From NCBI RefSeq assembly GCF_006345805.1, contig NC_043004.1:13206001-13270000 (forward strand): a DNA stretch of 64,000 nucleotides. Reading direction: 5' to 3'. The DNA is from Octopus sinensis (taxonomy: Eukaryota). Each line of letters begins with the position of its first letter. Positions within the stretch are counted from its first letter, which is position 1. Shown in pieces: positions 29,985 through 33,017 of this stretch. The translations under genes and the position numbers were made by a program. The notes below the pieces were generated by a model. That model was not told the DNA's origin and did not search any database. It worked only from the letters and a program-made list of their open reading frames with translations.

Positions 29985-30222
29985 TATACTTTATTTAAAG
30001 CAGCAGAAAATTCAACAAAACCTGTTACTCTGAGTTTCACGTTGCGTTCGTCGGACAGTTTTTGTTAGAAAAAAACTGTTCGATGAACGGCAACGCCAAA
30101 CTCAGAGTAACAGGTTTTGTTGAATTTTCTGCTGCTTTAAATAAAGCATATTACTCTACCACTGGTATTTGAGTACTCTTTTTCCACCTGTTTCACATTT
30201 ATGTGTTTACTACTCCATCCGG
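29985..30222 (+). mobile_element. Hairpin-plus-tail element with two inverted HHR motifs
   Basis: IR about 29990-30066 / 30069-30148, tail to 30222, (TA)n on both sides. A related partial copy is at 60700-60775. Confidence 0.85.
30014..30066 (-). ncRNA. Type I hammerhead fold with U4-to-C core variant
   Basis: AACAAAAACTGT-CCGACGA-ACG-CAA-CGT-GAAAC-TCAGA-GTA-ACAGGTTTTGTT: 12-bp stem I with one mismatch, 3-bp stem II, short stem III, GUA site. Confidence 0.65.
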
Positions 30223-30680: not shown

Positions 30681-31585
30681 GATAGATAGATAATGTGTGT
30701 GAAAATGCATATGTGTGTATATGTGTATACGTACACGCACGCACACATGAAAGAAAAAATAAAGTGGTAGTGTGTGATGTAAAAATAGAAATATTTCTGT
30801 GAGATACCATCGATCAATTTTAGATAATTTATAGGGTCTCTTCAAATATGTTGGTGTATTTCTGGAGACTCTTAACATCTTATCCTGTATCGTCTGCTCT
30901 AAATGACTGCAGCACTTTTAGCCTCGGCTGCCTTCTATGGATTGCACTATTCTTATAATATCATTGATAATACTGGGATGGCGTCTATATGTTGTCATTT
31001 ATTTATTATTTAGAAATTGTTTTGTACGTTTAAATGTCAGGAACGTCTAGGCGTCTGGAATTTTCATCAGATTCTAAAGTTATCTCCAACTTGAAAGCTC
31101 TAGCGAACCTGAATATGGGATTCGAGAAAGATTTTTTTCTTCTAATTGCAATGGTAAATTCGGAACAATTTAAATATTACGATTTGCTGTATAACACAAT
31201 GAGATACCCTAATTGTCCTTAGTAAACAGAATCTTACTCTGAGGTATTTTCTTCACAGTATTTTTGTTAAAATACAACAAGTGCCACTTCTTATAGATCC
31301 TTCAGGTTCATTTCAAAGAAATATTTTATTGCAGAATGCATTTCAATATATTATAGGTAGTTGTTGCAAGTAGGCACATATATAGAGTAGATTTAGAGGG
31401 ATCAATCACCTAGAGATGAGTATTGTATGTCCACATCTTTGTTCTGTTCTTATTCTCTCAGTAATATATATCCTTATAAGAAACTGTTTCAAACGCATGG
31501 TTTCGGTTTGTCCTACTATAGCTACGTGGCGAGCAATGCCCTGTGAGCAGATGTGGCAGATAGAAACTGGAGAAAGTCAATCGCT

Positions 31586-31617
<32 letters not shown>

Positions 31618-31692
31618 GTATGTATGTATGTATGTATGTATATAAATTAGAGAAGACCATCATATAGCAATAAAAATAAATAGTATATAATT

Positions 31693-31727
<35 letters not shown>

Positions 31728-31741
31728 GTATACTAGTATAG

Positions 31742-31783
<42 letters not shown>

Positions 31784-31789
31784 AGAAGG

Positions 31790-31840
31790 AGCTTCTACAG
31801 GACTAGAACTGTTTCATTCAAGAGAAATCTTCAGGAAGCT
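31790..31840 (-). ncRNA. Type I hammerhead ribozyme fold, canonical core (mirror copy)
   Basis: Minus strand AGCTTC-CTGAAGA-TTTC-TCTT-GAAT-GAAA-CAG-TTCTAGTC-CTGT-A-GAAGCT. Confidence 0.72.
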
Positions 31841-31884
31841 TCCTGAAGATTTCTGTGAAGAAACAGTTCTAGTCTGTAGAAGCT
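31837..31884 (+). ncRNA. Type I hammerhead ribozyme fold, canonical core
   Basis: AGCTTC-CTGAAGA-TTTC-TGT-GAA-GAAA-CAG-TTCTAGT-CTGT-A-GAAGCT. Predicted cleavage after GUA at 31878. Confidence 0.75.
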
Positions 31885-31989
31885 CCTTCATAAATAAATA
31901 ATTTACTTACTATGTATTGGTACCTTATTTACTGTGGTTAACCCCGAATCAACCCGGGACCTACATATATATATATATATATATATATA

Positions 31990-32030
<41 letters not shown>

Positions 32031-32084
32031 ATATAGTATAATATATTATATATATATATATACATACATACATATATATATATA

Positions 32085-33017
32085 TCACGCTGAGTAAAAA
32101 GTAAGTAACGTTTTGAAACGTGAAATTCATCACTGTATTTCAACAACGTGGAAATTTTATGCATGAAAGTAAGTATAATTACAATCATCACATTAATCAA
32201 CGAGTTACAAGTTTGTTTATTCCGGTGACATAGAAATATTTAGTTCTGGAGCTGATCAACTCTTTGAACGCACTTTCAGCATCGGTTTGATTTTTGAACT
32301 CCTTCTCCCGCAGGAAACTATCAAGTGTTTGAAGAAGTGGTAGTCGGTAGGAGAAAGATCTGGGGAATAAGCTGAATAAGGAAGAACTCCAGTGCCAACT
32401 TCTCTCAAATTCCGGAGCGTCATTAGTGAAACGGTTGGTCGAGCAATGTCATGAAGAATGATTGGCCCTCTTCTGTTGACCAGTCTGAGACGCAGGAGTA
32501 GGGGTTTTTCGTTCATTTTGTCAATTTCATAGCAATGTTTCTCCAGTATTGGATTTTCCTAGTTTTAAGAAGTTATAGGGGATGAGTCCAGCAATACACC
32601 ATCAACCAGTCACTATAACCATTGTTTTGACGAGCTCGGAAGGGAAGGTTTTCTGTGCTCCATTTTGATCAAACGGCTCCGAAGAATGTTTTTATGATTG
32701 TACAGAATCCCCTTTTCCCAGTTTTCTGGCTAACATGAAGTCCTCTTGCCAGATATCGAGTGGTCTTACGTGTATCTTTCTCAATGACGGTCTTTAATTG
32801 ACCGTCATCGATGACACATGGGTGTCCGCTACGCTCACGAACTTCAAGGCTCAGGTCTCCACTGCGAAATCGTTTAAATTATTTTCCAGCTGACCACTTA
32901 GTGGTTATTTCGTCATCAAACATTTCATTGATATTGCGAGCAGTTTCAGCTGCTTTACGTCCTTTTTTGAAGTTGAATAGCAAAATTGCTCGATAAATAA
33001 GTATATGAATTGCTGCA
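32085..33017 (-). mobile_element. Degenerate mariner transposon
   Basis: N-terminal RAILLFNFKKGRKAAETARNIN...FKRFRSGD..L....RSGHP and C-terminal ILHDIARP...LPYSAYSPDLSPTDYHFFKHL, with frameshifts. Ends at a TA run at 32084. Confidence 0.9.

Follow-up and report, generated by a model that had tools for sequence, protein, structure and literature searches.

Head-to-head hammerhead motifs in an Octopus sinensis microsatellite belong to a family of Penelope-like retrotransposon stubs

Results

A palindromic insertion between two microsatellite runs

The window, that is, the whole 64-kb stretch of Octopus sinensis contig NC_043004.1 that we analysed, consists of microsatellite-rich animal DNA from a 2.7-Gb genome. 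A palindrome with a one-sided tail occupies 31779-31965, flanked by (TA)n runs on both sides, and forms a roughly 190-bp insertion without a promoter (Table 1). Its left arm is identical to that of another genomic copy, L010, while its right arm and tail differ from L010 by nine single-base deletions and one substitution; the plus-strand hammerhead at 31837-31884 shows three one-base deletions and one substitution in this comparison. No ORF of the main family described below was found within the 64-kb window. Two other remnants lie on the minus strand nearby. Positions 30800-31580 are frame-broken and hold fragments faintly like the end of another Penelope-type ORF, unmatched to the ORF of the main family. 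At about 32190-33000 there is a broken transposase remnant, with fragments such as YSPDLSPTDYHFF, which we take to be mariner/Tc1-like.

Table 1. Features of the insertion and its flanks, in positions of the window
Feature	Position	Strand	Basis
Left-flanking (TA)n microsatellite, the insertion target	31586..31778		TRF array 31586-31784; 30 of 30 compared loci (window copy and 29 others) TA-flanked
Short inverted arm: leader of the element, axis to about +62, tail-less	31779..31838	-	Same as L010 arm throughout
Family-form type I hammerhead motif; cut predicted between 31796 and 31795	31790..31840	-	Descriptor and folding
Palindromic junction GGAAGCTTCC	31834..31843		Axis between 31838 and 31839, AG/CT
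A predicted as the parent element's transcription start (+1)	31837; mirror at 31840	+ (31837)	Prediction
Type I hammerhead motif, damaged copy; predicted cut after 31878	31837..31884	+	Descriptor, L010 comparison
Long arm, mirrored part	31839..31898	+	L010 comparison
One-sided tail (family length about 70 nt)	31899..31965	+	Full-length copies: runs on into 5' leader and ORF
Right-flanking (TA)n microsatellite	31966..32085		TRF

Two hammerhead motifs and their family form

A type I hammerhead descriptor with pairing rules returned exactly two matches in the 64 kb and none in 30 block-shuffled windows. The earlier note had placed two hammerheads on opposite strands around one palindromic centre, and its coordinates and motifs are correct. 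Both strands carry what defines the type, namely CUGANGA and GAAA cores, an NUH site and stems I and III. On the minus strand these are a 6-bp stem I, CUGAAGA, a stem II of U·U plus 3 bp, GAAA, a 4-bp stem III and GUA. In the family form both arms have an 8-nt loop III and a UUC/GAA stem II closed by U·U. The motif class given earlier for the plus arm stands, but the stems and loops described there owe their existence to private deletions of the window copy. Likewise, both folds are present, but they are not independent, one motif being the mirror copy of the other; the centre and arms of the palindrome were well placed, but it is not symmetrical, with its one-sided tail reaching 31965.

Folded alone, the RNA from +1 to 56 is predicted to form stems I and III and hardly any stem II: a stable stem II with a G10.1-C11.1 pair is lacking, and the U·U plus 3 bp found in its place has a predicted pair probability of 0.05-0.07. 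The absence of the usual G-C pair, rightly noticed from the sequence, is normal for the clade, since U·U is frequent in published hammerheads of the Hydra clade (14 of 25 families by our own count in File S2 of Craig et al., 2021, PMC8557442). In RNAs of 70-140 nt a local hairpin is predicted over the cut site. For RNA that extends across both arms, the prediction is a dominant hairpin (63 bp and -121 kcal/mol in L010), and for the window copy the predicted probability of stem I in such an RNA is about 0, in agreement with the earlier proposal that a spanning transcript would block the ribozyme. Among the ribozymes of its clade the window copy is ordinary, and it is probably inert.

A search of positions 31786-31962 against Rfam at E<=10 gave 50 local matches without any hammerhead family, only hairpin models under their gathering scores, and no hammerhead family was among the 150 matches listed of the 246 for the whole window. 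Hammerhead cleavage in a shifted register at CUA was rejected by inspection, as the stems would be unpaired.

Five hammerhead variants were seen twice or more, and they change only at N7, at two sites in loop II and at one in loop III; in the spacer used for comparison, 13 of 21 positions vary among subfamily variants. Confinement of the changes to N7 and loop bases fits constraint, and the stems are invariant among subfamily variants, so that there is no covariation. One subfamily change, in L113, L111 and L106, turns the CTAG palindrome of loop III into the longer ACTAGT and would strengthen dimer pairing.

Hundreds of equivalent stubs in the genome

The structure in the window is one of about 605 head-to-head stubs of a Penelope-like retrotransposon and not a unique dual ribozyme. 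A DNA search of the genome gave 634 candidates, of which 40 were scored. The 29 other loci that were fetched hold the same unit of about 190 bp inside TA runs, with arms that are mirror-perfect apart from scattered one-base indels. The exact centre was counted 230 and 234 times on the two strands, corresponding to about 230 loci, and the figure of about 605 refers to loci with two arms joined by 30 nt or less, counted with a pattern that sees at most 8 nt past the perfect centre. An older subfamily adds 164 head-to-head loci at the same hot spot.

The earlier note took the arms to have diverged in their loops. Family copies are instead perfect mirrors, and what differs in the window copy is its nine private one-base deletions and its substitution. 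Long arms have no deletion in 87 of 140 cases and more than nine in only one. Because these deletions are private to one copy and the other copies are mirror-perfect, the arm differences are not selected divergence; by comparison of copies, they are sequencing error or decay of one copy and not ribozyme divergence.

The parent element

In ORF-bearing copies the arm is the 5' leader, upstream of an ORF for reverse transcriptase (RT) and endonuclease. The leader reads TATAAA, 29 nt, AGCTTCC-hammerhead-tail and ATG at +184, and the arm recurs 3-4 kb behind the ORF. The ORF contains YRDD, DKT, CxCX5C, CxxC, CxH and RWR motifs and, at E<=1e-60, has 808 relatives roughly 700 aa long; searches of Pfam, NCBIfam and PDB with it gave no convincing RT or GIY-YIG match. 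By its motifs it is a single ORF with RT plus, at its C terminus, a GIY-YIG-type endonuclease linked to the repeat, as in endonuclease-bearing (EN+) Penelope-like elements, and the pLTR occurs in direct and inverted copies with a one-sided tail. In the accessible text of Craig et al., 2021 (PMC8557442), the definition of the Hydra clade covers DKT, CxCX5C, CxxC and CxH, together with an RWK motif. We found DKT, CxCX5C, CxxC with CxH and a (TA)n target; in place of RWK the main family has RWR, and a second family has RWK. On these motifs and a match by eye to published Hydra proteins, in particular a likeness to Hydra-1_Obim, we class the parent as a Penelope-like retrotransposon with Hydra-clade motifs. 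The distance of 3-4 kb from ORF end to hammerhead may be set against a Hydra length generally under 3 kb, which is typical and not defining.

Native upstream DNA is kept by 1480 arms of the main subfamily, many of which form outward-facing inverted pairs 0.1-7 kb apart. Whole-insertion palindromes were also seen, of 7.0 kb (L052:907-7900) and 4.2 kb (L058:832-5053). In the 3' regions of L051, L055, L096 and L103, 3-4 kb of (CA/TA)-type microsatellite-rich sequence lies between ORF and hammerhead, so the family may spread microsatellites through the genome.

The second family, with a protein 41% identical to that of the main one and its own hammerhead, has 387 head-to-head stubs, counted with a pattern that sees at most 6 nt past the perfect centre. 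They are centred on a CT/AG palindrome, and the start site and the TATA spacing are less clear than in the main family. The window holds a decayed stub of this family at 29987-30222, with a short arm, a centre near 30067, a tailed long arm, TA flanks and mutated cores. L169, L181, L182 and L183 hold related ORFs of 890-1124 aa, which exceed the typical length of Hydra proteins; no clear pLTR hammerhead was found in the fetched stretch.

Junctions pile up on one base

Junctions of the stubs pile up on one base, 29 nt downstream of the conserved TATAAA. Among 100 listed copies from older subfamilies, 94 keep 29 nt between TATAAA and +1, although the spacer varies. Among 52 listed loci counted by hand, 16 have the perfect centre and 41 an arm reaching GGAAGC or one base more; seven loci reach GGAAG, four are shorter, and none extends into native upstream DNA within the 8 nt at most that this pattern sees past a perfect centre. 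A pattern seeing 30 nt further found 142 loci, and the native continuation occurs in 2 of the 50 listed. Forty of these 50 were fetched, leaving out one already in the set, two with native sequence, two neighbouring duplicates and five with no more than one extra base; the script paired 39, and 32 of these have centres of six or more letters. In these 32 loci the sequence just past +1 begins with C in 50 of 64 arms and with the native TA in none of the 64, with C on both arms at 18 loci. Many inserts are re-copied neighbouring sequence that starts with C and ends with G, so that C on both arms is no proof of two cDNAs. For L1, the accessible part of PMC11702581 attributes an extra G at 5' junctions to the cap; here, going by the letters at the junctions, the cap reading and the two-cDNA reading of the extra C are suggestive only.

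Near the predicted cut site there are 11 short-centre loci, at most four of them joined at the site itself, and four loci end within 3 nt of it, ahead of TA. So few junctions or ends at the cut site indicate that the copied RNAs were nearly all uncut. Three other readings were considered and rejected: a 3' splice site at the axis (most arms keep AG), priming at the ribozyme-cut 3' end (only four loci) and a template starting at the cut site (at most four loci).

All paired stubs combine a short arm with a tailed arm

Outer ends were examined at 87 loci, of which 76 could be paired, 48 of these having been chosen by centre only. All 76 combine one short arm ending at 57-68 with one tailed arm ending at 131-136. 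Subfamily sites are identical between the arms of a pair (68 of 68, 68 of 68 and 53 of 53), so that both arms stem from one template or one source locus. The protein of the Anolis PAc element nicks and extends both strands, and its RT starts at two internal sites bounding the tail, with uncut RNA as the main template (Frangieh et al., 2024; PMC11167929). Since those start sites showed no strand difference (PMC11167929), the strict rule of one short and one long arm is not explained by that alone.

Discussion

Origin of the stubs

The two hammerheads of the stub are mirror copies of the single one in the element's leader, and they probably arose when RT copied an uncut sense RNA through to its 5' end. 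A TATA promoter in the pLTR would give a capped RNA starting from the A of AGCUUCC, at the 5' edge of stem I, and the endonuclease would nick (TA)n. RT would then begin at internal sites near +66 and +140, in this case not far from the RNA 5' end; the cDNA would run off at +1, often picking up a C, and the ends would be joined head-to-head through self-complementary AGCT or short re-copied inserts. Joining may involve two cDNAs primed from both target strands, to which we incline slightly, or one cDNA folding back. The junction at one base, the TATA spacing and the short and tailed pairs point to capped sense RNA copied from two internal starts, which we infer in preference to antisense self-priming. 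The fuller statement, that the stubs record Penelope integration itself, with one capped RNA, two RTs on opposite target strands that begin at two fixed internal starts and both reach the cap, and joined ends, is put forward tentatively, as a possibility we would not yet bet on.

Arkhipova et al., 2013 (PMC3846280, accessible part) proposed antisense self-priming to account for the head-to-head palindromes of Penelope in Adineta vaga. By this route, or by an RT stop followed by fold-back at stem I, the mirror would come from the same parent and owe nothing to a start site or cap. The hot spot does fall on the 5' edge of stem I and on a 4-bp palindrome, and many junctions fit fold-back on short microhomology. 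We nevertheless consider such an origin unlikely: it predicts neither the fixed TATA spacing nor the excess of C, GTTAAC, the 6-bp palindrome just upstream, is the axis in only 1 of 50 listed loci, and the CCTTC that a stem I snap-back would add is present in only 1 of 50. Less probable again is a non-autonomous, retrozyme- or MITE-like element that multiplies as a unit. It would account for an exact centre common to about 230 loci and for near-identical ends, but the perfect centre is confined to 16 of the 52 hand-counted loci while the others vary, and the copies are not in tandem, unlike retrozymes. The stubs moreover share subfamily variants with the long copies, a private change in L114 is mirrored in both arms, and the TATA box is absent, which makes the stub a likely dead end.

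Complete cores on both strands led the earlier note to suggest that a transcript from either strand could self-cleave, and one might see in this a two-way ribozyme device that explains the structure. Selection for such a switch is very improbable, as a given RNA carries just one hammerhead, which is predicted to be trapped in the 63-bp hairpin, the arm differences are private deletions, and hundreds of equivalent copies lie in microsatellites; the structure is instead a retrotransposition product. Nine one-base deletions do resemble long-read error, and an assembly artefact from fold-back reads might be suspected. The note already doubted a read artefact. Hundreds of loci on many contigs share one axis, with unequal arms and different flanks on each side, and we give an artefact hardly any credence.

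Relation to known elements

Earlier publications already describe inverted pLTRs with a tail, head-to-head palindromes and hammerheads in pLTRs (accessible parts of PMC8557442, PMC3846280 and PMC4209133). With the Hydra clade (e.g., Hydra-1_Obim, Penelope-1_HM), as described in the accessible text of PMC8557442, the main family shares the C-terminal endonuclease, DKT, the CxCX5C linker, CxxC with CxH, the (TA)n target, U·U at the stem II base, an inverted 5'-truncated copy and the one-sided tail. It differs in RWR for RWK, in a 3-4 kb 3' region that makes it longer than the stated <3 kb, in a 70-nt tail, a 3-bp stem II and an 8-nt loop III. In the accessible supplement of that paper, where wrapped or cut lines could hide a match, five short motifs taken from the families described here did not turn up.

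The Adineta vaga elements, in the available text of Arkhipova et al., 2013 (PMC3846280), have head-to-head pLTR palindromes, an optional tail on one arm and a TATA in the pLTR, but in few copies and with the antisense model, whereas Octopus has hundreds of minimal copies with the junction 29 nt behind TATAAA. Hammerheads of Penelope-like elements (Cervera and De la Pena, 2014; PMC4209133, accessible part) likewise are type I motifs in the pLTR with a palindrome in loop III. Opposite-strand pairs are reported there from Schistosoma at 100-700 bp, whereas the Octopus stubs have zero spacing and no G10.1-C11.1 pair. The Anolis PAc element belongs to another clade, Poseidon, and resembles our case in its two internal RT starts bounding the tail, its AT-rich target and its uncut RNA template; head-to-head products are not analysed in the main text (PMC11167929). 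Animal non-LTR retrozymes (bioRxiv 10.64898/2026.07.22.740005, accessible part) are also small, non-coding and derived from Penelope-like elements with a type I hammerhead, but they are head-to-tail tandems with a hammerhead in each unit, whereas a stub is a single head-to-head insertion.

Our literature search, with subscription papers and Repbase entries outside its scope, found no publication that ties the inverted junction to a start site or a cap, and such a link may be known. The fixed one-base junction, the 29-nt TATAAA spacing, the non-native C and the constant pairing of a short with a tailed arm (76 of 76) were likewise not found in print and may be known.

Significance

How Penelope-like elements make their inverted repeats is described as an open question (accessible parts of PMC8557442 and PMC3846280). 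The stubs are of value as evidence: over a thousand minimal insertions, joined at a fixed point, yield specific predictions that can be tested on the start site, on which strand is the template and on the state of the ribozyme. Anyone scanning animal genomes for hammerhead pairs will go on finding such stubs. If the integration reading is true, it would settle how inverted pLTRs form and would overturn antisense self-priming for this clade. Start sites of Penelope-like elements would become mappable from DNA alone, and the hammerhead, placed at the very first base of the mRNA, would be a normally silent decapping switch.
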